Of a stretch of DNA of 64,000 nucleotides, positions 26,713 through 56,157 are shown in pieces. The position numbers and the translations under genes were made by a program. The notes below the pieces were generated by a model, which saw only the letters and a program-made list of their open reading frames with translations, was not told the origin of the DNA and made no database searches. Source of the DNA: Phototrophicaceae bacterium (GTDB lineage: Bacteria > Chloroflexota > Anaerolineae > Aggregatilineales > Phototrophicaceae); NCBI GenBank assembly GCA_965223515.1, contig CBDCWK010000001.1:788835-852834 (forward strand). Reading direction: 5' to 3'. Numbering within the stretch: position 1 is the stretch's first letter; each line of letters begins with the position of its first letter.

Positions 26713-27699
26713 GTGGCAAAGAATAGAAACCTCCACCAAGCGAAGTCCAACAAAAAAGACGAGTTCTACACCCAGCTTGTCGATATTGAAAATGAACTCC
26801 GGCATTACACCGATCACTTTCGCGGGAAGGTCGTCTACTGCAACTGCGATGACCCGCGAGTGAGCAATTTCTTTCATTACTTCGCCTACAACTTCCGCGT
26901 ACTCGGGCTCAAGAAGTTGATTACGACATGCTACAGAAGTCAGCAAATGGATTTATTCAGTAAGCATGATACAGAGCGGGCAATATGGCTGGAATACGAT
27001 GGGACACAGAACGAGACCGGTGTGCCGTCACTCGAAGACATCGGCATACACTACCTTGAAGGCGATGGCGATTTTAGAAGCGCCGAATGTATCGAGCTGC
27101 TCAAACAAGCCGATATTGTGGTGACAAACCCGCCCTTTTCGCTGTTCCGTGAATATGTGGCGCAGTTGATTGAGTACGATAAGAAGTTTCTGATTGTCGG
27201 TCATCAGAACGCGATTACTTATAAGGAGATATTCCCCCTGATTAAAGACAACAAATTGTGGCTTGGGATTACTCCTCGTGGAAAGGACATGTTGTTTGAT
27301 GTGCCGAAAGATTACGCAAAAGAATTGGTCGCAACCAAAAAAGAGGGCAGCGCTTATAGAATTGTAGATGGCGTTGTATATGGCAGGCTTGGAAGCGCTA
27401 GCTGGTACACCAACCTTGACTACCGGCAAAGGCACGAAGAACTGATTTTATACAAACGCTACTCGCCAGAGGAATATCCGAAGTACGACAACTATGATGC
27501 GATTGAAGTGTCAAAGGTCGCGCACATTCCCAAGGACTGGGACGGCGCGATGGGCGTGCCGATTACCTTCTTGAACAAACACAATCCAGAGCAATTTGAG
27601 ATAATTAGGTTCAGAAAAGGAGATGATGGAAGAGATTTGCGTGTAAATGGAAAAGAGCCTTACTTCCGCATCGTTATTCGGCATAGGAGAGGGGCGTGA
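26713..27699 (+). CDS. N6-adenine DNA methyltransferase, EcoRI-methylase-like family
   Basis: The N-terminal KKDEFYTQLVDIENEL block and catalytic motif IV VVTNPPFSLFREY. Visibly AT-richer than its flanks. Confidence 0.8.
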   Translation: MAKNRNLHQAKSNKKDEFYTQLVDIENELRHYTDHFRGKVVYCNCDDPRVSNFFHYFAYNFRVLGLKKLITTCYRSQQMDLFSKHDTERAIWLEYDGTQNETGVPSLEDIGIHYLEGDGDFRSAECIELLKQADIVVTNPPFSLFREYVAQLIEYDKKFLIVGHQNAITYKEIFPLIKDNKLWLGITPRGKDMLFDVPKDYAKELVATKKEGSAYRIVDGVVYGRLGSASWYTNLDYRQRHEELILYKRYSPEEYPKYDNYDAIEVSKVAHIPKDWDGAMGVPITFLNKHNPEQFEIIRFRKGDDGRDLRVNGKEPYFRIVIRHRRGA

Positions 27700-27703
27700 T
27701 GGG

Positions 27704-29050
27704 ATGAGCGGTAGAATGGATAAGAAGGGGATGTGGTGGGTTAAGGGAAACGAGCATAAGAAGTTTACAGGCATATTGACGTATGGTGATGGGTATGTCC
27801 CAACACTAGAGATATTTCTGAAGGAATATGATTTTGACAAACAATCAGTTCCCAATAATTCTACAATCTATGGAGACGTATTTGGGGAATCCAAGAAAAT
27901 CCAGGCAGTTACATTATTAGAATGCAGACCAAAAAATAGTCTAGGAATGCCCGATGTAGGCGCTTTTATTTATAAACAAGAATTTGTATATGCTGACTGC
28001 GTTGCTATTGGTATGCTGCTTGATGATGACGAGATAGCACAAGTGAAATCTCCCCAGAGCATACATTTGACTTGCCCCGGCCTAGATGAATACATCGTGG
28101 TAAACGCGATAAAGCATCAATGGAAAGACAACATTCCAGAGGGCAGGGCTTACCGCGTCAGCGATCTTGAAACAATTGTGTATACCCCGCCCGAACCCAT
28201 CGCAATTGAAATAGATATTGGAACAATCACAATATATCTAGGGCCATCAAGCACAGGCAAAGACATATCATCAAGGCATTTCATTCACGTCAGTTTTGAG
28301 AATCCTACGCCAGAAGCTGAGGTCAACTCACTGATTTATTCACAGTTATTATCTTTTCTTTCGATAATGAGCGGGCGCAGAGAATATATTGAAACTCATA
28401 CAATTACCATAAACTCGAAGCAAACACGCTCTGATTCATTGAGTATAGAACTCAATTATGGGCATATTGCGCACTCGACGCAACAAACAAAGTATTCCAT
28501 ACTGCAATCGCTCTTGCTTGGCAGAGAAGGGAATGTGAGCAAGTTCGCAACTTTGTTTCCAAAGTGGCGCGAGGATTTCGCATTCGTTGAAGGTTTGGCT
28601 TTCCAGTATATGCAAATGGTTGATGCACACCGGTTTACCAAAACCGATCTGATACACGCATTTTCTTTCATTGAAGAATATGTAGTGGACAGAGACATTA
28701 AGGCAGATAGGTCTAATATGGCTGGTATCCTAAGTGGGATCATTGAATTTATCGCCAGCTATTTTTCTTGCAGTAACAAATATACACAACATTTCCAAAG
28801 GGAATCAAAAGGACAAGAACATATTGCCAAGCAGCTTGCACACTTTCGCAACAAACATACGCATCAAAAATCAAATGAAGTGTGCCTTTATTCTATCCAA
28901 GAAGTTTATGCGTATATCTCTGTAATCATGCGTTCGATATTCCTGATAGAGATGGGATGTCCTGCTGACAAGATAGACAACATGGTATCGCATTGGGAGC
29001 TATGGCATCAGCTGCCTGAGTGTCAGCACACGGAAGGTAATAACCGATGA
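27704..29050 (+). CDS. ApeA-like protein with a C-terminal HEPN (Rx4H) domain
   Basis: C-terminal LAHFRNKHTHQ contains the RNxxxH HEPN motif. The N-terminus GMWWVKGNEHKKFTGILTYGDGYVPTLEIF resembles the ApeA N-terminal domain. The start 4 nt after the MTase stop is preceded by AGGAGAGGGG. This is the most AT-rich gene in the window by eye. Confidence 0.6.
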   Translation: MSGRMDKKGMWWVKGNEHKKFTGILTYGDGYVPTLEIFLKEYDFDKQSVPNNSTIYGDVFGESKKIQAVTLLECRPKNSLGMPDVGAFIYKQEFVYADCVAIGMLLDDDEIAQVKSPQSIHLTCPGLDEYIVVNAIKHQWKDNIPEGRAYRVSDLETIVYTPPEPIAIEIDIGTITIYLGPSSTGKDISSRHFIHVSFENPTPEAEVNSLIYSQLLSFLSIMSGRREYIETHTITINSKQTRSDSLSIELNYGHIAHSTQQTKYSILQSLLLGREGNVSKFATLFPKWREDFAFVEGLAFQYMQMVDAHRFTKTDLIHAFSFIEEYVVDRDIKADRSNMAGILSGIIEFIASYFSCSNKYTQHFQRESKGQEHIAKQLAHFRNKHTHQKSNEVCLYSIQEVYAYISVIMRSIFLIEMGCPADKIDNMVSHWELWHQLPECQHTEGNNR

Positions 29051-30141
29051 AAATCGAGCTGCTAGACCTCACAGTGCGCGACCTCGTCGCCGGCTACCAT
29101 GACGACGGCGATGGCGGCGTGGTCGGCTACGGCGGGGCGCTCGATATTCGCCCGCCCTTCCAGCGCGAGTTTATCTACGATGACAAAGAGCGCAAAGCCG
29201 TCATCAACTCTATTCTCAAGGGCTTCCCGCTCAATGTCATGTACTGGTCAGACCGCGAGGACGGCACTTACGAAATTATTGACGGTCAGCAGCGCACTAT
29301 CTCCATCGCTCAATATGTAGCGGAAAAACCGGGCTTCTCGTTCAAGGGGCTGGGCTTTGACAATCAGCAATCGGACATCAAGAAGCGGATACTCAATTAC
29401 AAGCTGATGGTCTATGTGTGTACTGGCACAGATAGCGAGAAGCTGGAATGGTTTGAGATCATCAATATCGCGGGGAAACAGCTATCGAGTCAAGAATTGC
29501 TCAATGCGATTTACTCCGGCTCCTGGGTTACAGACGCCAAGCGCTATTTCAGCAAGCGCGGTTGCCCGGCGTATCAAATTGGCAGGGACTATCTAAGCAA
29601 TTCGGTGAAGGTGGATCGGCAACATTATTTGGAAACAGCGATCAAGTGGATTAGCGAGAATAATATCAGAGAGTATATGCGGAATCACCAGCACGATGAT
29701 AGTGCCGAGCCGCTCTGGGAATACTTTCAATCTGTTATTGACTGGATAAAAGCTGCTTTCACAGAATACAGGTCGTCTATGAAGGGCGTGGACTGGGGCA
29801 GCCTGTACAACGCCTACAAAGACGCGAAACTCGACCCCGTAAAGATCGAAGCCGAAGTTGAAGAGTTGCTTGATGACGAGGACGTTCAGCGAGAATCAGG
29901 CATATACCCGTATATCCTCACTTGCGAAGAAAAGCATCTTAACCTTCGTGCCTTTGACGCCCGCATGAAGCGAAGAGTCTACCGGAAACAAGACGGCATC
30001 TGCGCTATCTGTAAAGAGGAATTTCACATATCCGATATGGAAGCGGACCATATCACCCCTTGGTCCGAAGGCGGCAAAACCAGCGCAGACAACTGCCAGA
30101 TGCTCTGCCGGAAATGCAACCGCGAGAAATCCGCGAAGTAA
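29047..30141 (+). CDS. DUF262 (ParB/GmrSD N-terminal-like) protein with a C-terminal HNH nuclease
   Basis: RPPFQREFIY and IIDGQQRT motifs (DUF262). The C-terminus is CAICK...EADHITPWSEGGKTSADNCQMLCRKCNREKS (HNH). ATGA overlap with the upstream gene. Confidence 0.85.
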   Translation: MKIELLDLTVRDLVAGYHDDGDGGVVGYGGALDIRPPFQREFIYDDKERKAVINSILKGFPLNVMYWSDREDGTYEIIDGQQRTISIAQYVAEKPGFSFKGLGFDNQQSDIKKRILNYKLMVYVCTGTDSEKLEWFEIINIAGKQLSSQELLNAIYSGSWVTDAKRYFSKRGCPAYQIGRDYLSNSVKVDRQHYLETAIKWISENNIREYMRNHQHDDSAEPLWEYFQSVIDWIKAAFTEYRSSMKGVDWGSLYNAYKDAKLDPVKIEAEVEELLDDEDVQRESGIYPYILTCEEKHLNLRAFDARMKRRVYRKQDGICAICKEEFHISDMEADHITPWSEGGKTSADNCQMLCRKCNREKSAK

Positions 30142-42700: not shown

Positions 42701-43306
42701 GCCTATCAGAACGAGGCTTACGCGCGGCGCTATATCGAGGATGTCAAGCGAGTTTACGCGGCGGAACAGGCAACTTGCCCCGGCGCGACCGACTTGAGCG
42801 AAGCCTTCGCCCGTTACCTCTTCAAGCTAATGGCATACAAAGACGAATACGAGGTGGCGCGCTTAAGCCTGAAGCCTGACCTGCGAGCGGCGATGAAAGC
42901 ACAGTTTGGCGAGCGCGCGCGCATGAGCTATCACTTGCAGCCGCCGTTCCTGAAAGCATTGGGCCTGAATCGCAAGATACAGCTGGGACGCTGGTTTGAT
43001 ATCGTCTATCGCGGCCTGCGCCCGCTGCGCTTTCTGCGCGGAACGCCCTTTGATCCTTTCGGCTACGATCGCGTCCGGCGCGTCGAGCGGGACTTGATCG
43101 CGCAATATCGTCGACTGATATTCGCCGCGCTGGAGGACTTAAGCGGCGAGAATTATGAGCAGGCAGTTGCGTTGGCGGCGCTTCCCGATATGATCCGTGG
43201 TTACGATGAGGTAAAGCTGGGCAATGTCGAGCGCTTCTGGAATGCGGTGCGCGCGCTGGGGTATGAGGACTTGCGCCAAAAGACCGGGTTGGCAAAACAG
43301 CGCTAG
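39770..43306 (+). CDS. Indolepyruvate:ferredoxin oxidoreductase family protein (fused alpha/beta, 1178 aa)
   Basis: N-terminal IMSGIQALARLPLDQ, TPP-binding GDGTFAHSG, ferredoxin-type cysteine clusters CEGCGDCGAVSNC / CNKDYTCLEGNCP. The length is typical of the fused Ior family. Confidence 0.9.
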   Translation: MIETKPPPTITEQRELKDFTLEDRYTVEDGRVIMSGIQALARLPLDQHRADKRRGLHTAGLITGYRGSPIGALDFALERIPGLLQEHHIRFIPAVNEDLAATAIMGSQTVNLLPEPKYDGVCGIWYGKGPGVDRSGDAFKHANLAGVGQYGGVLALAGDDPSCKSSTIPSHSEVALYDALMPILYPGSAQEILDMGLLGFALSRFSGLWVGVKIVTDVADEYSSVEVGHGRVNVIEPDFTVHGQPWRPTQNTALLSPYSVQQEKEIHDERLDAALAFARANRINEIAVPTATAWLGIIAAGKTWYDLRGALHDIGLDDDGLERAGIRLLKLGMIFPLERDILLEFATGLDEILVIEEKRSFIETFCKEALYGSGHTPIIVGKKDEAGKKLVKADNELDADEVLRILARRLNGRVDVPLLEGRLREINRLPDLGAIPIVARQPYFCSGCPHNRSTKVPEGSMAAAGIGCHTLAIMMDRNTAGVTQMGGEGANWVGAEAFTDIDHIFQNIGDGTFAHSGSLSIRQATAAGANMTFKILYNSAVAMTGGQEADGLMPVPEMTHLLYAEGVKKTIVVSADPGKFPPDTRWAVGAEVWERDRMEEAQLILRETPGVTALIYDQECAANLRRKRRRGFAADPALRIVINEAVCEGCGDCGAVSNCLSVQPVETEYGRKTQIHQSSCNKDYTCLEGNCPAFMSVIPAEMTQRSAPSYRVEQVIAEPHRQVNGAANILLMGIGGTGVVTSNQVLGTAAALDGYHVRSLDQTGLSQKGGPVVSNLKITAEPVDIAPKIGASATDAFLVFDVLTATASLNLIRANPQRSVAIVSTSKVATGAMVRDTTVEYPEADHLLEIINRQTRAGDNVFFDALGLAETLFGDHMMANMIVIGAAYQAGLLPMSASSIERAIELNGVKIEDNQHAFRAGRLAVADSGWLASVEVKAAGSLEVEVERSAAAQTLIDSLPAGGELKRLLEIRVPELIAYQNEAYARRYIEDVKRVYAAEQATCPGATDLSEAFARYLFKLMAYKDEYEVARLSLKPDLRAAMKAQFGERARMSYHLQPPFLKALGLNRKIQLGRWFDIVYRGLRPLRFLRGTPFDPFGYDRVRRVERDLIAQYRRLIFAALEDLSGENYEQAVALAALPDMIRGYDEVKLGNVERFWNAVRALGYEDLRQKTGLAKQR

Positions 43307-44904
43307 AGAGGGCTGCGTCGTCCAGCGATGAGCGCCTGACAGGCTTCTGTATGAAAGTGGTCGCGCGCCCACTTCGTCCGCTCTCGGGCATATTCCCGCG
43401 CCATTTTTGCTATGCTCTCGTCTTTCATCCAATTCACCGACTTCTTCTTGTTCGCGCGCAATAAGCCGCGCAGGGTCAGGTTGTCGCGCTTGCGGCGGTT
43501 GCAGGGACCGCAGAGCAGGATGCGATTGGTGATGTGATTCTTGCCGCCGTCAGCCTTGGGCTGGATGTGATCGAGCTGCATGAACTCGACTTCGAGGACG
43601 CGCCCGCAGCCAGCGCAAATGACGCCACCCGATGTGCCTTGCGCCTGTGCCAGGATATTCATCATGCCTTTATGCGATATTTTCTGCCAAGCCTGCACGG
43701 GACGCTGGATCTTAAGCCGGAAGCTGGGCGCTGCCATGTCGTTGTCGTCGCTGCGGACGGGCGGCGCCGTTTCGACATGGACGATATGCGGGAACATCAG
43801 GTTTTCGCCTTCTTCGGGCGTGACCAGCCACTCTTCCCGCAGGCGTTTCAGAACAATATCCTTGGCCCCGTCCCAAATGTCCATGCCGACCCATTGACGC
43901 TTGAGCTGCTCGGCGGCGACCGGTGTGGTGGCGCAGCCGCAGAAGGGGTCGAGCACGATGTCGCCTTCGTTGCTGCTGGCTTCGATAATGCGCCTATAGA
44001 GGGCGATCGGCTTTTGCGTGGGATACTTCTGTCGTTCACTTTTCGGTGCGTGCATCATATCCGGAATATCATCCCAGACAGAGCCATATCTGTACTGTTC
44101 TACGACCTTGCCATTTTCTTCTGGCAAATCATAACGAATCCTAATTGTCCCGGTCCTTGTCCTATAAATTCTTTCTTCACTTTCTAGTCGTTTAATTGAC
44201 TCATCTGTATAATCTCCGCGTGGCGCGGTTTTGAACCAACCACGCTCATCTTTTCTGAAACCTTTTTTTCTCGCATTCTCGACAGATAGCACATGGTTTC
44301 CCAATGGAGGATTAAATGTCCATTTGTTAGATCGTGAATAGAATAAAATCGTATCGTGATTTCTTGCATATTGTTTAGCAATACCTTTTGCACCTCTTGC
44401 TGCCTTGCCGTATGCCCACACAATCGCGTTGCGGAAACTCTTACGTCCGAATATAGCATCCATCAGACACTTCACATAAGCGTGCGCCGTATGGTCAATG
44501 TGCAGATACAAGCTACCGTCCTGCCGCAATACCCGCCGCATCTCCATCAGCCGCACACCAAGCCAGCACAGGAACGCGCCCATATCATCGCCATAAGCCA
44601 CCCGCGCCGCCGTGATGACTTCCCAAACGGCGGGCCAGTCGTCGATGATGCTGTCAGTCCATTCTTCATGCACATCCCGCTCCCAGGACCAGCGGTCTTG
44701 AAAGCGAGCGCCAGAAGCCAAGCTATCGGGGGTGGCGTGGAAATCGCGGTTCTTATTGAAAGGCGGATCGGTGGCGATGAGATGCACCGTCTCGCTGTTC
44801 ATGCCGCGCAGGAAATCGAGATTGTCACCGTGATAAAGCGTGCGGTTCTTGAAGTTGGGCTGCCCGCCGCCGTGATGAGAGGCGCTCACAGCAACCCCAC
44901 GCAA
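43303..44904 (-). CDS. DNA methyltransferase (N4/N6 beta-class, PF01555-like) fused to a C-terminal HNH endonuclease
   Basis: Motif IV IATDPPFN precedes motif I VLDPFCGCATT (beta-class order). The C-terminus is CAGCG...LDHIQPKADGGKNHITNRILLCGPCNRRK (HNH). TTG start at 44904; an alternative GTG is at 44889. Its stop overlaps the ior stop in the palindrome CTAG. Confidence 0.85.
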   Translation of the reverse strand: MRGVAVSASHHGGGQPNFKNRTLYHGDNLDFLRGMNSETVHLIATDPPFNKNRDFHATPDSLASGARFQDRWSWERDVHEEWTDSIIDDWPAVWEVITAARVAYGDDMGAFLCWLGVRLMEMRRVLRQDGSLYLHIDHTAHAYVKCLMDAIFGRKSFRNAIVWAYGKAARGAKGIAKQYARNHDTILFYSRSNKWTFNPPLGNHVLSVENARKKGFRKDERGWFKTAPRGDYTDESIKRLESEERIYRTRTGTIRIRYDLPEENGKVVEQYRYGSVWDDIPDMMHAPKSERQKYPTQKPIALYRRIIEASSNEGDIVLDPFCGCATTPVAAEQLKRQWVGMDIWDGAKDIVLKRLREEWLVTPEEGENLMFPHIVHVETAPPVRSDDNDMAAPSFRLKIQRPVQAWQKISHKGMMNILAQAQGTSGGVICAGCGRVLEVEFMQLDHIQPKADGGKNHITNRILLCGPCNRRKRDNLTLRGLLRANKKKSVNWMKDESIAKMAREYARERTKWARDHFHTEACQALIAGRRSPL

Positions 44905-53280: not shown

Positions 53281-53320
53281 CCTCGCACCCCAAACCCCTT
53301 CCCCACAAGGAGGGAGGGGC
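53281..53320. repeat. Intergenic repeat, family B (reverse orientation)
   Basis: cctcgcaccccaaaccccttccccacaaggagggaggggc. Confidence 0.6.
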
Positions 53321-53380
53321 TTCGTCGGCTGTGGCGGGGTCGGGTTGAACTTGCCCCGTTTTGGTGGACAGTGATTTTGT

Positions 53381-54235
53381 CTAATCGTCAGCGAGTTCAT
53401 ACTGTGCCGGGCTAAGGAAGCCCAAGGCAGAATGCCGTCGCTGCCGGTTGTACCAAATCTCTATGAAATCGAACACAGCTTGCCGAGCCTCTTGAATTGT
53501 AGCAAAGCGTATAGCTGAACATTCCGTTTTCAGAGTCGCGAAGAAACTCTCCATCATGGCATTGTCATAGCAGTTTCCGGCAGCGCTCATGCTGGCTTGG
53601 ATACGATTGTCCTGCAGGAGTTGGCGGTATTGCTTGCTGGTATATTGGCTGCCGCGATCACTATGATGGACCAAGTCGCGGTTAATACGCCGCTGTCCCA
53701 AAGCCATTTTCAGGGCAGCCATCGCCAGTTGGCTGTCCGCCTTCCGCTTCATAGCCCAGCCCACAATCCTGCGCGAATATGTGTCTAATACCACCGCCAA
53801 GTGGAGCCATCCTTCACCGGTTCTGATCTGCACGATATCGGCCAGCCACTTCTGGTTGACGCGCTGAGCTGCGAAGTCCTGCTGCAGTAGGTTCGCTGCC
53901 GCTAAACCGGATGTATGCGATCGCCTACGCTCCCCGTAGCCTTGTTTGCGCCGCGCCCGTATGCCATCCAGCCGCATCAAACTCGCAACCCGCTTGCGGC
54001 TGACTCGCCAACCCGCTGCCCATAACTCCGCGTGGATCCGTGGACTGCCGTAGCGCTGGCGACTGCGCTCGAAGATGTCGCGAATCCGCCGCAAAAGCGC
54101 TTCGTTGTCCCGCTCCCGCTGGCTGACAGCCCGCTTCAACCAAGCATAGAAGCCACTGCTTGATACTTCCAACACCCGGCACATCCGCCGTACGCTGAAT
54201 TGTGCTTGGTGACTCTCAATAAATCGAAACTTCAT
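53381..54235 (-). CDS. IS3-family transposase OrfB (rve/DDE integrase core)
   Basis: WLADIVQI (D), HSDRGSQYTS (D), CYDNAMMESFFATLK (E) motifs. Confidence 0.95.
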   Translation of the reverse strand: MKFRFIESHQAQFSVRRMCRVLEVSSSGFYAWLKRAVSQRERDNEALLRRIRDIFERSRQRYGSPRIHAELWAAGWRVSRKRVASLMRLDGIRARRKQGYGERRRSHTSGLAAANLLQQDFAAQRVNQKWLADIVQIRTGEGWLHLAVVLDTYSRRIVGWAMKRKADSQLAMAALKMALGQRRINRDLVHHSDRGSQYTSKQYRQLLQDNRIQASMSAAGNCYDNAMMESFFATLKTECSAIRFATIQEARQAVFDFIEIWYNRQRRHSALGFLSPAQYELADD

Positions 54236-54528
54236 CGCGGTCGATCCTGCGAGAACACTTGGATAGCTTTTTTTAAAATATCTCGCTCCTCCCGTGCAAT
54301 CGACAACTCATGCTTTAAACGACGAATCTCGGCATCCGCCTCACGCTCCGCAGTCGGTTTCAATTCATCGCTATTTTCATCTACACGAAATCGTTGACGC
54401 CACTTGTAGATCAGTCCCGGCGTGATGCCCAGATCACGTTCGACCTGGCCCACTTTCATTCCAGGTTGTGCAGCCAACTTCAATGCTTCGCGTTTGAACT
54501 CGTCCGGATACTTCTTTATGTCCGCCAT
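54232..54528 (-). CDS. IS3-family transposase OrfA (HTH)
   Basis: YPDEFKREALKL...GITPGLIYKWRQ HTH and a leucine-zipper-like tail. It overlaps orfB in the -1 frame. Confidence 0.9.
   Translation of the reverse strand: MADIKKYPDEFKREALKLAAQPGMKVGQVERDLGITPGLIYKWRQRFRVDENSDELKPTAEREADAEIRRLKHELSIAREERDILKKAIQVFSQDRPR
54268..54274 (-). other. Programmed -1 ribosomal frameshift heptamer A AAA AAA (then G) joining orfA to orfB
   Basis: T7 on the plus strand at 54268-54274. In the orfA frame it reads TTA AAA AAA GCT. The -1 frame continues ...KKSYPSVLAGSTAMKFRFIESH into OrfB. Confidence 0.7.
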
Positions 54529-54722
54529 CTTCCCCTCCAGTCCCTATCATATTGGACAATCCTTGTGTCCACAAAATCGGGGGAAGATCAGGTCGAGGGA
54601 TTCGGTTGTTAAGGCGCGATGGGGTCAGGGTAGCAGGGATTGGGGTGCGAGGGGCGACTGAATGGTCGTGGATTCTGGGGATACACCACAGAGGCACAGA
54701 GAGTTTAACCTGTCGGTGATGC

Positions 54723-55379
54723 CTAGTCGTTCGTTGACGGAGCGGTTTCGGTTGGAGCCCCGCATAACATTTCGAAGCCTCGCTTAATCGAACTAGAGTA
54801 ACAAAACCACCAATAGAACGATACAAATGCAATGATTACGACAGTGGAACCTAGATTAAGGAATCCGAGGAGATTTTCTCGCGCCACAGTAATTGGCCTT
54901 ATTTGCCAAAACTTGTAAAAAGCAATAAGCAGCAATCCAAGAGGAATAAAGATCTTATACAGAAGGTCGTACAGATTTAGAATCGTAGGGTATTTCTCAG
55001 CGTAGGCTTTACCTTCAGTTTTGATCGGAACTCCGAATTTACATCGGATCTTTTCTTCGAGAAAGTTAGTATCATTGTAAGATCTCTCGATACCGACAGC
55101 AATTTGAAGATACCGCGTTATGAGTAACATAAAGATAAATAGTAAAATAGTTTCGAGTATAGGGAAGTCGTCTGCGATCGTCGTGCCAAGAAATCGCTCG
55201 GCCAATCCGGCAAATATGCTGAAAACCAACTTAGGATGCAACAGTTGCAATAGGATAAGGACGACAACGACTAGAATGAAGAGAAGATACCGATAGCGAC
55301 TACGAATTTGACTGCGACGGTTGGCAACAACGTCTTTGTAGTGAGCGTACAGTATCTCTCGTTTTTTCTCGTCTGACAT
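54723..55379 (-). CDS. Four-TM membrane protein of unknown family, partner of the TIR-like gene
   Basis: 218 aa with hydrophobic helices at about aa 31-47, 74-95, 143-158 and 172-193. It starts 5 nt after the TIR gene stop. AT-rich. Confidence 0.6.
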   Translation of the reverse strand: MSDEKKREILYAHYKDVVANRRSQIRSRYRYLLFILVVVVLILLQLLHPKLVFSIFAGLAERFLGTTIADDFPILETILLFIFMLLITRYLQIAVGIERSYNDTNFLEEKIRCKFGVPIKTEGKAYAEKYPTILNLYDLLYKIFIPLGLLLIAFYKFWQIRPITVARENLLGFLNLGSTVVIIAFVSFYWWFCYSSSIKRGFEMLCGAPTETAPSTND

Positions 55380-55384
55380 ATCAA

Positions 55385-55810
55385 CTAGGCGTCATTGAGA
55401 GCTTTGGTGATAGCCTCTTCTGTGAAACTCATTGCCCAGCTAGCCCCAGATTCGAGTAACTCCTCTGGGCTCTCATAACTGCGTTTAATCTTCACACCTA
55501 CCAACTTTTTACCATGTTCCTTGCTCTTGGCAACTTCAAAGTTGATCCAATTCCTGTAACCAATTTCCCGCCAGTCTGGATGACGCTTGTTTGCGTTCTT
55601 GCCGACGATGACCAAGGTGTGCGACGCGCTTTTGATTCGTTTCGTCAGGTTGCTCTTGATGACGGCAATACAGTCTGACTGGATCTCCGGAGGAGTACGG
55701 TCGACTATCTCGAAATCAAAGTCCAGGTTATTGCTCCACGCATTGAGCAAATACTTATAGTGCTTGTCATCTTCGTAGTCGAAACTGATGAAAACCTTCT
55801 TCTTTGCCAT
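55385..55810 (-). CDS. ThsB-like TIR-domain protein (DUF1863/PF08937-type)
   Basis: KKVFISFDYEDDKHYKYLLNAW... and TLVIVGKNANKRHPDWREIGYRNWINFEVAKSKEHGKKLVGVKI parallel Bacillus ThsB (KRVFFSFHYQD...NHW; CVLIGSQTFNRRWVRYEIMKSIEKGNKIIGIHI, from memory). Confidence 0.8.
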   Translation of the reverse strand: MAKKKVFISFDYEDDKHYKYLLNAWSNNLDFDFEIVDRTPPEIQSDCIAVIKSNLTKRIKSASHTLVIVGKNANKRHPDWREIGYRNWINFEVAKSKEHGKKLVGVKIKRSYESPEELLESGASWAMSFTEEAITKALNDA

Positions 55811-55940
55811 TGATGTTGTATCCTATGATGGTTAACGTCTTTGGATTCTGCAAAGTCGCGTAATCGACTTGTCTTTCATCATATCACAGAAGAGTAAAGA
55901 AGCGTACAAATGTTCTCATAATATTAACGCAATTCTTATA

Positions 55941-56099
55941 CTACCCACCCTCCACCACCCGCACCTCATCATCGCTCAAGCCGTACAGCGCATAGACCAG
56001 CGCGTCAATCTCACGATCGGTCGCCTCAATCTGCGCCTCGACCACCCCGCGCTGAACATCCGTCAAGCCGGGCAACTGACGATGCAAGTCGAGATCTGC
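55941..56099 (-). pseudogene. C-terminal stub (52 codons) of an Eco57I/type IIG or BREX PglX-type DNA methyltransferase
   Basis: The minus strand reads ADLDLHRQLPGLTDVQRGVVEAQIEATDREIDALVYALYGLSDDEVRVVEGG*. The ...ID.LVY.LYGL...E..VVE tail is characteristic of those enzymes. An in-frame stop lies immediately upstream at 56100-56102. Confidence 0.6.
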
Positions 56100-56116
56100 T
56101 CACGAGGCGACCGAAC

Positions 56117-56147
56117 TCCCTTCCCTGATGCTTCGGGGAAGGGGTAG
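56117..56147. repeat. Intergenic repeat, family B (short form)
   Basis: tcccttccctgatgcttcggggaaggggtagg. Confidence 0.55.
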
Positions 56148-56157
56148 GATTTGAGTC

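Follow-up and report, generated by a model that had tools for sequence, protein, structure and literature searches.

TIR signalling is a common thread of immunity in bacteria, plants, and animals, and the signals made by TIR enzymes are derivatives of ADP-ribose. Here we describe a pair of adjacent genes, one encoding a stand-alone TIR protein and the other a membrane protein with four predicted transmembrane (TM) segments (the 4TM protein), carried by a 64,000-nt stretch of the genome of a Phototrophicaceae bacterium (Chloroflexota; contig CBDCWK010000001.1, positions 788,835 to 852,834), the whole of which is called the window below. The closest described systems are those of the Thoeris group. 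In a scan of TIR operons located in defence islands, 29 putative Thoeris types were listed and types V to XI were validated, the effectors of which are DUF2270, DUF6650, SLATT, CMP hydrolase-TPR, TIR-SLOG, ion channel, and HIT hydrolase proteins (Yirmiya et al., bioRxiv 3 December 2025, 10.64898/2025.12.03.692087). Table S1 of this preprint includes 33 TIRs with "4TM" as the "putative associated effector", all belonging to TIR cluster 2727267812; the class was selected because its TIR clusters are enriched beside known defence genes. TIRs of the same cluster also pair with SLATT, CMP-hydrolase, and ion-channel effectors, and the type VII SLATT-associated TIRs of this cluster that were tested make canonical cyclic ADP-ribose (cADPR) (Yirmiya et al.). 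We consider it moderately probable that the two window genes make up a self-contained abortive-infection cassette of the Thoeris-like TIR + 4TM class, preceded by a leader of their own, and that the two proteins form a signalling pair.

As judged by sequence comparison, the window pair is a member of this "4TM" class, which is already catalogued and has the status of a prediction. Over its full length, the TIR protein shares 60-66% of its residues with the 33 TIRs of the class; with the SLATT-associated TIRs of cluster 2727267812 the identity is only 34-39%, and with type I ThsB 26%. Four of the "4TM" TIR strings given in Table S1 are exact substrings of TIR open reading frames (ORFs) at four of the related loci collected in this study (L027, L028, L075, and L093), where a 4TM-family gene lies directly downstream of the TIR gene (E 1e-50 to 1e-68). 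These exact identities, together with the downstream genes, indicate that the "4TM" of the preprint is the family to which the window protein belongs. An earlier note on this DNA, written from the sequence alone, had proposed that the pairing would be new if the partner belonged neither to SLATT nor to S-4TM. The partner matches neither family (see below), and the novelty claim nevertheless fails, the class being already present in Table S1.

The window pair has the two-gene layout of the "4TM" class, and its proteins belong to the families of that class. It differs in coming from a Chloroflexota subclade for which the first search gave only nine clusters and where a restriction-modification (RM) gene, reduced here to a stub, precedes the pair. 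The class itself bears no Thoeris type number. Some of the "4TM" entries in Table S1 occur in pairs whose gene numbers are two apart (ga0169192_10055220/22, ga0243717_100018678/80, and ga0245165_10037627/29), which would imply triplets of the form TIR-4TM-TIR, a single effector lying between two divergent TIRs. Among the validated types, type VII (ThsB plus the SLATT protein ThsH, signalling by canonical cADPR) resembles the window pair in combining a stand-alone ThsB-type TIR, drawn from the same cluster, with a membrane effector that is small, spans the membrane several times, and has no enzymatic domain; the predicted action of this effector, as for the window pair, involves a positively charged cytoplasmic pocket followed by membrane disruption. 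The two systems differ in their partner proteins, since none of 114 4TM family members matches SLATT, and in their TIRs, given the 34-39% identity mentioned above. SLATT effectors have two TM helices, whereas the window effector has four. Type V (ThsB plus the DUF2270 protein ThsF, with three TM segments, and 3'cADPR) and type II (ThsB plus Macro-TM, and His-ADPR) also combine a TIR with a membrane effector and cause abortive infection by membrane damage, as is proposed for the window pair; unlike these types, the window has neither PF10028 nor a Macro domain, and the type V TIRs of Table S1 fall in other TIR clusters than those of the window's class. The S-4TM/2TM effectors of CBASS (Burroughs et al. 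2015) are likewise small multi-pass membrane effectors coupled to a nucleotide-signal synthase, but they show no HMM similarity to the 4TM protein, and the partner enzyme there is a CD-NTase/SMODS protein, in place of the TIR found here.

Both genes lie on the minus strand, with ORFs at exactly the coordinates given in the earlier note, and are separated by 5 nt (TAG-ttgat-ATG). The upstream, thsB-like gene (55385-55810) encodes a stand-alone TIR protein of 141 aa, which matches PF08937 (ThsB_TIR) over profile positions 1-97 of 100 with 47.2 bits (cutoff 21.2; E 3e-12), as well as several PADLOC ThsB models (ThsB1, ThsB2; best E 9e-13). Its NWINFEVAKS segment aligns with RWVRYEIMKS in the structures 6LHY and 9B7D of the Bacillus cereus MSX-D12 ThsB, and E92, the Glu of NFEVAKS, thereby aligns with E85 of the B. 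cereus protein, the E85Q mutation of which abolishes Thoeris defence. E92 is invariant across 10 TIRs partnering 4TM genes (alignment A4) and is the putative catalytic Glu, retained in the window protein; the ThsB/DUF1863 assignment with a conserved Glu made in the earlier note thus stands. A cluster look-up returned no public names for either the TIR or the 4TM protein. The PADLOC candidate PDC-M50B was considered and rejected: the TIR matches the model and the partner matches nothing, so that the pair would not be called PDC-M50. As the earlier note had also remarked, no ThsA accompanies the pair: no SIR2-SLOG, Macro, SLOG, or other receptor gene for an NAD-derived signal was found between 40 and 64 kb of the window, and the SIR2-SLOG, Macro-TM, SLOG, and caspase-like domains of classical Thoeris types I to IV were detected neither in the partner nor in the ORFs of at least 180 aa in this 40-64 kb region.

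The downstream gene (54723-55379) encodes the 218-aa 4TM protein, the putative Thoeris-like effector. Its hydropathy profile shows four hydrophobic segments, with TM segments at about residues 32-47, 73-95, 135-156, and 171-193; an amphipathic helix occurs at residues 49-64, and the N-terminal segment is basic, with nine Lys or Arg among 31 residues. Based on hydropathy and charge bias, the protein is predicted to adopt an N-in/C-in topology, with the loop 96-134 in the cytoplasm. The AlphaFold2 model, built from a 114-sequence alignment, is all-helical (predicted local distance difference test score, pLDDT, 91.4; predicted template modelling score, pTM, 0.84), with helices at 3-47, 49-64, 73-115, 132-159, and 167-205, two long ones of which (3-47 and 73-115) reach from the membrane into the cytoplasm. 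The description of this partner as a four-helix protein with no assignable motif was accurate, since no family was found for it in Pfam (up to E 1), PADLOC, or NCBIfam. None of the 114 family members matched the Pfam models for SLATT, S_4TM, or DUF2270 (PF10028) at E values up to 0.05, and the PADLOC 2TM/4TM effector models gave only scattered single-member matches, with E values of 0.001 or weaker. Membership of SLATT, S-4TM, DUF2270, and PycTM was therefore rejected at the HMM level for the window protein and the 114 members, very remote homology being still possible; matches to DUF805 (E 0.27) and "8xMP" (3 of the 114 members) were judged to be noise.

Although a word-indexed search with the 4TM protein returned only nine close clusters, an exhaustive profile search yielded 589 representatives at 50% identity with E values of 0.001 or less, and 404 with 1e-10 or less. 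Going by these sequence matches, 4TM is a large family of roughly 200-aa proteins, and the window copy belongs to a small Chloroflexota subclade. A metagenome scan with the close 4TM alignment A1 found nothing, and a tblastn search with the low-GC member P0167 against annotated plasmids and phages gave no match. Family-wide, the residues H13, Y14, R28 (100%), R89, Y90, Q92, E98, R99, Y101, E108, E122, G123, Y126, Y130, P131, Y141, P146, and Y189 are near-invariant, and nearly all the conserved residues sit on cytoplasmic segments or on the cytoplasmic ends of helices. This pattern of conserved cytoplasmic Arg, Tyr, His, and Glu residues would fit a nucleotide-type ligand pocket and parallels the charged pockets described for ThsF, ThsG, and ThsH. 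The family-wide near-invariant residues have all been kept in both window proteins. One member, P0026 (532 aa), is a natural TIR-4TM fusion, with the TIR occupying residues 13-110 and the 4TM module residues 149-343, and with an additional C-terminal region that ends in a TM segment. Another kind of fusion was observed in P0149 (601 aa), which joins a 4TM module to the C-terminal part of prolipoprotein diacylglyceryl transferase (Lgt).

The pairing of the two genes is strongly conserved. The broad 4TM alignment (A2) being too diverse for pattern-based retrieval, the loci were anchored on the TIR: a metagenome scan of the TIR clade gave 349 relatives, and 80 loci were fetched. A 4TM-family gene was found directly downstream on the same strand in 76 of these 80 loci (76 of the 79 informative ones), which represent 52 lineages at 80% identity; in the four exceptions, the TIR gene is followed by a contig edge (one locus), a transposase fragment (two loci), or unrelated GC-rich sequence (one locus). 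The five closest loci (L001-L005), taken from metagenome-assembled genomes and metagenomes of Anaerolineae or Aggregatilineales, all carry a PF08937 TIR of 140-141 aa followed, after a 5-nt gap, by the 4TM gene. From the 4TM side, a TIR gene was present in the cluster at every locus with a readable context, and was directly adjacent everywhere except at L010 and L011. Distant 4TM homologs, only 25-32% identical, are likewise paired with ThsB TIRs, in either gene order: the TIR precedes the 4TM gene in P0174 and P0168 as well as in P0167, where the gap is 4 nt and the pair lies on an element carrying an integrase and ArdA, while the order is reversed in P0171, where the 4TM gene precedes an overlapping TIR gene beside Mob_Pre and resolvase genes. 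The synteny check suggested in the earlier note thus gave a positive answer in close and distant loci, from both sides of the pair. TIR-4TM co-inheritance is near-obligate across at least 52 lineages, occurring in both orders and as a fusion, and the pairing is real and old. At L010 (792-6636) and L011, the 4TM-family gene is preceded by a 123-aa ORF devoid of a TIR signature, and the genes farther upstream encode a 319-aa TIR_2 protein, a 1134-aa LRR-Roc-COR-TIR_2 protein, and an RM protein of the MmeI/Eco57I type; these two loci may show a variant wiring of the same effector.

In composition, the cassette is foreign to its surroundings. The guanine-cytosine (GC) content of the pair and its leader is 0.428, versus a window mean of 0.568, i.e., 3.3 standard deviations lower (standard deviation of same-size windows, 0.042), in line with the earlier remark that the pair is AT-richer than its flanks; only one other region of the window shows values below 0.45. 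The same holds in every Chloroflexota locus, where the GC content of the pair is 14-16 points below that of the host or the surroundings. In low-GC bacteria, the family shows values of 0.20-0.34, and the cassette was probably acquired from such bacteria. Integrases, recombinases, and Mob or ArdA genes are found among its mobile neighbours. The cassette is horizontally acquired, compositionally foreign, and mobile, and both of its own genes are intact.

The cassette is preceded by a 5' leader (55811-55940, minus strand) and, farther upstream, by the dead C-terminus of a type IIG RM gene (55941-56093, minus strand; 49 codons plus stop, of the Eco57I/TaqI_C type). The about 90 nt located just upstream of the TIR start are conserved between the window and L001, L003, L004, and L005, whatever the type of RM gene present (alignment A3), and include a TGnTATGnT element, read in the window as the extended -10-like TGnTATGAT at 55878-55886. 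Judging from this conservation, the leader is the probable promoter of the cassette; a scan for the sigma-70 consensus gave no promoter on the coding strand. The stub matches the C-terminus of the PADLOC model REase_MTase_IIG (E 4.9e-7) and, in tblastn, residues 995-1043 of the Eco57I/TaqI_C-type type IIG enzyme at L004 (63% identity, E 1e-14). Its GC content is 0.62, which is host-like and unlike that of the pair. Full-length type IIG enzymes combine a fused endonuclease, a methyltransferase, and a specificity domain, of which only the last 49 codons are left here. Since the stub corresponds to the last 49 residues of the L004 enzyme and tblastn detected no further type IIG homology upstream of it, about 995 codons have been deleted, up to the end of the ADP-ribosylglycohydrolase gene. 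In its closest relatives the cassette is preceded by a type IIG RM gene, which the window copy appears to have lost; both genes of the cassette itself appear intact.

An RM gene precedes the pair, in the same orientation, in all five of the close Chloroflexota loci, and three kinds are involved: MmeI-type genes at L001, L003, and L005, an Eco57I-type gene at L004, and an N6_N4-MTase-HNH fusion at L002. The fact that the leader is conserved independently of the RM type and that the GC content of the pair is unlike that of the stub indicates that the cassette moves independently, the mobile unit consisting of the leader, the TIR gene, and the 4TM gene. The earlier note had described the pair as sandwiched between an IS3 element and a dead RM stub in a defence-island-like context. 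Both flanks are indeed present, but the context was overstated: beyond them, the next genes are housekeeping genes with a host-like GC content, among them those for IlvD, an ADP-ribosylglycohydrolase, and BNR and NosD-like proteins. The stub makes better sense as what is left of an ancestral order RM-TIR-4TM than as a sign of a defence island. A gene closely resembling the one upstream of the pair at L002 was observed about 10 kb from the pair, at 43303-44904 on the minus strand: it encodes an N6_N4-MTase-HNH fusion of 533 aa, 65% identical to the L002 protein, and may be the trace of a rearrangement or simply a conserved host gene.

Starting from the features established computationally (the identities of the proteins, the retention of the catalytic Glu, the topology of the 4TM protein, the location of its conserved residues, the co-inheritance, and the mobility), the following scheme may be proposed. 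What it says about phage sensing, about the synthesis and nature of the signal, and about ligand gating and membrane damage is carried over by analogy from types II, V, VI, VII, and X of Thoeris, which have been validated. The stand-alone ThsB-type TIR would be both the infection sensor and the signal synthase. Upon phage infection, it would convert NAD+, via E92, into a second messenger derived from ADP-ribose. This signal would bind to the cytoplasmic face of the 4TM protein, made up of the basic helix at the N-terminus, the stretch that extends beyond TM2, and the loop joining TM2 to TM3, and carrying the near-invariant residues from H13 to Y130 listed above. The 4TM protein would then oligomerise or open, the membrane barrier would collapse, and the cell would stop growing or die before phage release. 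The earlier proposal of a TIR/membrane-effector module was borne out computationally as far as the association of a ThsB TIR with a 4TM protein in the absence of ThsA is concerned, its parts dealing with novelty and the defence island having been set aside above.

Several points weigh against this signalling scheme. The "4TM" class is absent from the tested systems (Table S2) and the main text of the preprint (Yirmiya et al.), and a search for "Thoeris" paired with "4TM" in the literature available found no further paper; the class is a predicted one. A Foldseek search of the 4TM model against the PDB gave no meaningful match (best E 1.5). Since the 4TM protein has no recognisable nucleotide-binding domain and no similarity to SLATT, S-4TM, DUF2270, or solved structures, the ligand-gating step is argued by analogy. 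The TIR is, moreover, far better conserved than its partner: across lineages, the partner TIRs are 59-78% identical to the window TIR, apart from the outlier L006 at 37% (alignment A4), while the 4TM partners of the same lineages are 25-58% identical (alignment A2). Classical Thoeris shows the reverse, its ThsB sensor being the part that varies. Direct protein-protein action would account for the natural fusion and the close translational coupling just as well as a diffusible signal. Lastly, the window cassette is surrounded by housekeeping genes, an IS element, and a deleted RM gene, and its expression and activity in this host are putative.

Some of these points would be accounted for if the roles were reversed or the two proteins acted by direct contact, the 4TM protein being a sensor or an anchor responding, for example, to membrane perturbation or DNA injection, and the TIR an effector depleting NAD+, with no diffusible signal. 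This would suit the single-chain fusion P0026, the genes lying 5 nt apart or overlapping at most loci, which suggests stoichiometric co-translation, the failure to detect a ligand-binding domain in the 4TM protein, and its much faster evolution than that of the TIR, as expected for a phage-facing component; stand-alone or effector TIR NADases are also known in CBASS, Pycsar, and TIR-pAgo contexts (10.64898/2025.12.03.692087). We nevertheless regard it as rather unlikely, because other members of the TIR cluster pair with SLATT, CMP-hydrolase, and ion-channel effectors, the tested ones making cADPR, because conservation in the 4TM protein is highest at Arg, Tyr, His, and Glu residues on the cytoplasmic side, which suit a ligand pocket better than an external sensor, and because the loci appearing as TIR-4TM-TIR in the gene IDs of Table S1 are typical of several sensors feeding one effector. 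It is distinctly less probable that the pair is a selfish addiction or exclusion module of mobile elements, resembling a toxin-antitoxin system with the membrane protein as the toxin and the TIR as its regulator. The compact, compositionally foreign two-gene architecture and the frequent carriage by integrative or mobilisable elements, with Mob_Pre, resolvase, and integrase genes alongside, would agree with such a module, and a defence phenotype of the class is not among the published results; on the other side stand the enrichment of the TIR clusters beside known defence genes (10.64898/2025.12.03.692087), the conservation of the catalytic Glu in all the TIRs examined, and the validation of sister TIRs from cluster 2727267812 as synthases of anti-phage signals, which leave this explanation barely probable.

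PrrC, which guards EcoprrI, provides the model for a further explanation, in which the cassette would be a TIR-based analogue tied to the adjacent RM enzyme and firing when the latter is blocked by phage anti-restriction, overwhelmed, or failing to cut, the window copy having been orphaned by the loss of its RM gene. Such a coupling would explain why the pair lies directly downstream of a co-oriented RM gene of three architectures in all five close Chloroflexota loci, the window keeping the stub, and why it is found inside type I hsd operons elsewhere: at L012 (5576-6576), the gene order is hsdM, hsdS, TIR, 4TM, hsdR, and at L046 (6001-7028) the pair begins 32 nt after hsdR of an hsdMSR operon. 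A type IIG enzyme also occurs upstream of the pair at L024, and at L009 an ArdA anti-restriction gene is located about 600 nt upstream of the pair. The arrangement at L012 and L046 recalls other abortive-infection genes embedded in type I loci. In most independent lineages, however, no RM gene is adjacent, and the neighbours are integrases, recombinases, a reverse transcriptase, a UvrA-like ATPase, a helicase-PLD protein, and unknown or housekeeping genes. Since the cassette moves independently of the RM type, as its leader and its GC content indicate, and since RM genes are the commonest defence genes and hence expected neighbours in defence hotspots, the RM adjacency is read as co-localisation in such hotspots, and a functional coupling to the RM enzyme is improbable. 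There is a similarly small chance that the cassette is an inactive relic in this genome, not expressed or not functional, left behind by the RM deletion and the IS3 insertion. The loss of about 995 codons of the upstream RM gene, the presence of the IS3 element 132 bp downstream of the 4TM stop codon, and the failure of the sigma-70 scan would be in keeping with this, as would the loss of the 4TM gene at 3 of the 79 informative related loci, which indicates that decay occurs. Yet both ORFs are full length, the near-invariant residues are all kept in both proteins, and neither the conserved leader nor its extended -10-like element is damaged, all of which argues against a relic.

The IS3-family element (53346-54590, minus strand) is part of the context and lies outside the module. 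Its orfA (54232-54528) and orfB (53381-54235) overlap at 54232-54235 and match the Pfam models HTH_Tnp_1, rve, HTH_21, and rve_3; the element ends in TG...CA and has 40-nt terminal inverted repeats with 73% complementarity (53346-53385 and 54551-54590). It is flanked on both sides by GGT (53343-45 and 54591-93), a 3-bp duplication that is weak evidence when taken alone. Overlapping orfA (HTH) and orfB (DDE rve), inverted repeats, TG...CA ends, and a 3-bp duplication are together what is found in the IS3 family. The element is also bracketed by a 17-nt inverted repeat with 94% complementarity (53281-53297 and 54636-54652). GC-rich hairpin-like repeats of the CCCCTTCCCC...GGGGAGGGG type flank it at 53281-53320 and 54636-54652, and a similar repeat occurs after the stop codon of the ADP-ribosylglycohydrolase gene, at about 56125-56150; these repeats may be host intergenic repeat elements.

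The ADP-ribosylglycohydrolase gene itself (PF03747, 56158-57279, minus strand), which directly abuts the RM stub, was considered as a possible signal-degrading partner of the cassette and rejected: because its GC content is host-like and homologs are absent from all 94 related loci, its adjacency looks coincidental. A second AT-rich islet, where the GC content drops to 0.41, was observed at 26713-30141 on the plus strand and forms a separate small defence cluster, in which genes for an EcoRI-type adenine methyltransferase (26713-27699), an ApeA_NTD1 protein (27647-29050), and a GmrSD_N-HNH type IV restriction enzyme (29047-30141) follow one another.

The window copy neatly exemplifies a class already known as a prediction and does not amount to a discovery, but the class itself is now well enough defined to be tested. 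The natural fusion, the topology, the conserved cytoplasmic residues, and the recurrent position in RM operons provide a description of it, together with the almost invariable joint inheritance of the two genes. It is a common class, with 589 4TM representatives and 349 metagenome relatives in the TIR clade, the effector of which has no Pfam family and no structural relative. The low-GC homologs identified here, such as those at L009, L027, and L075, should be easier to test than the Chloroflexota copy. Every validation of a Thoeris type has up to now brought to light a signal molecule or an effector principle; if the TIR + 4TM class is validated, it would add one more membrane effector, and possibly one more signal, to the Thoeris repertoire.

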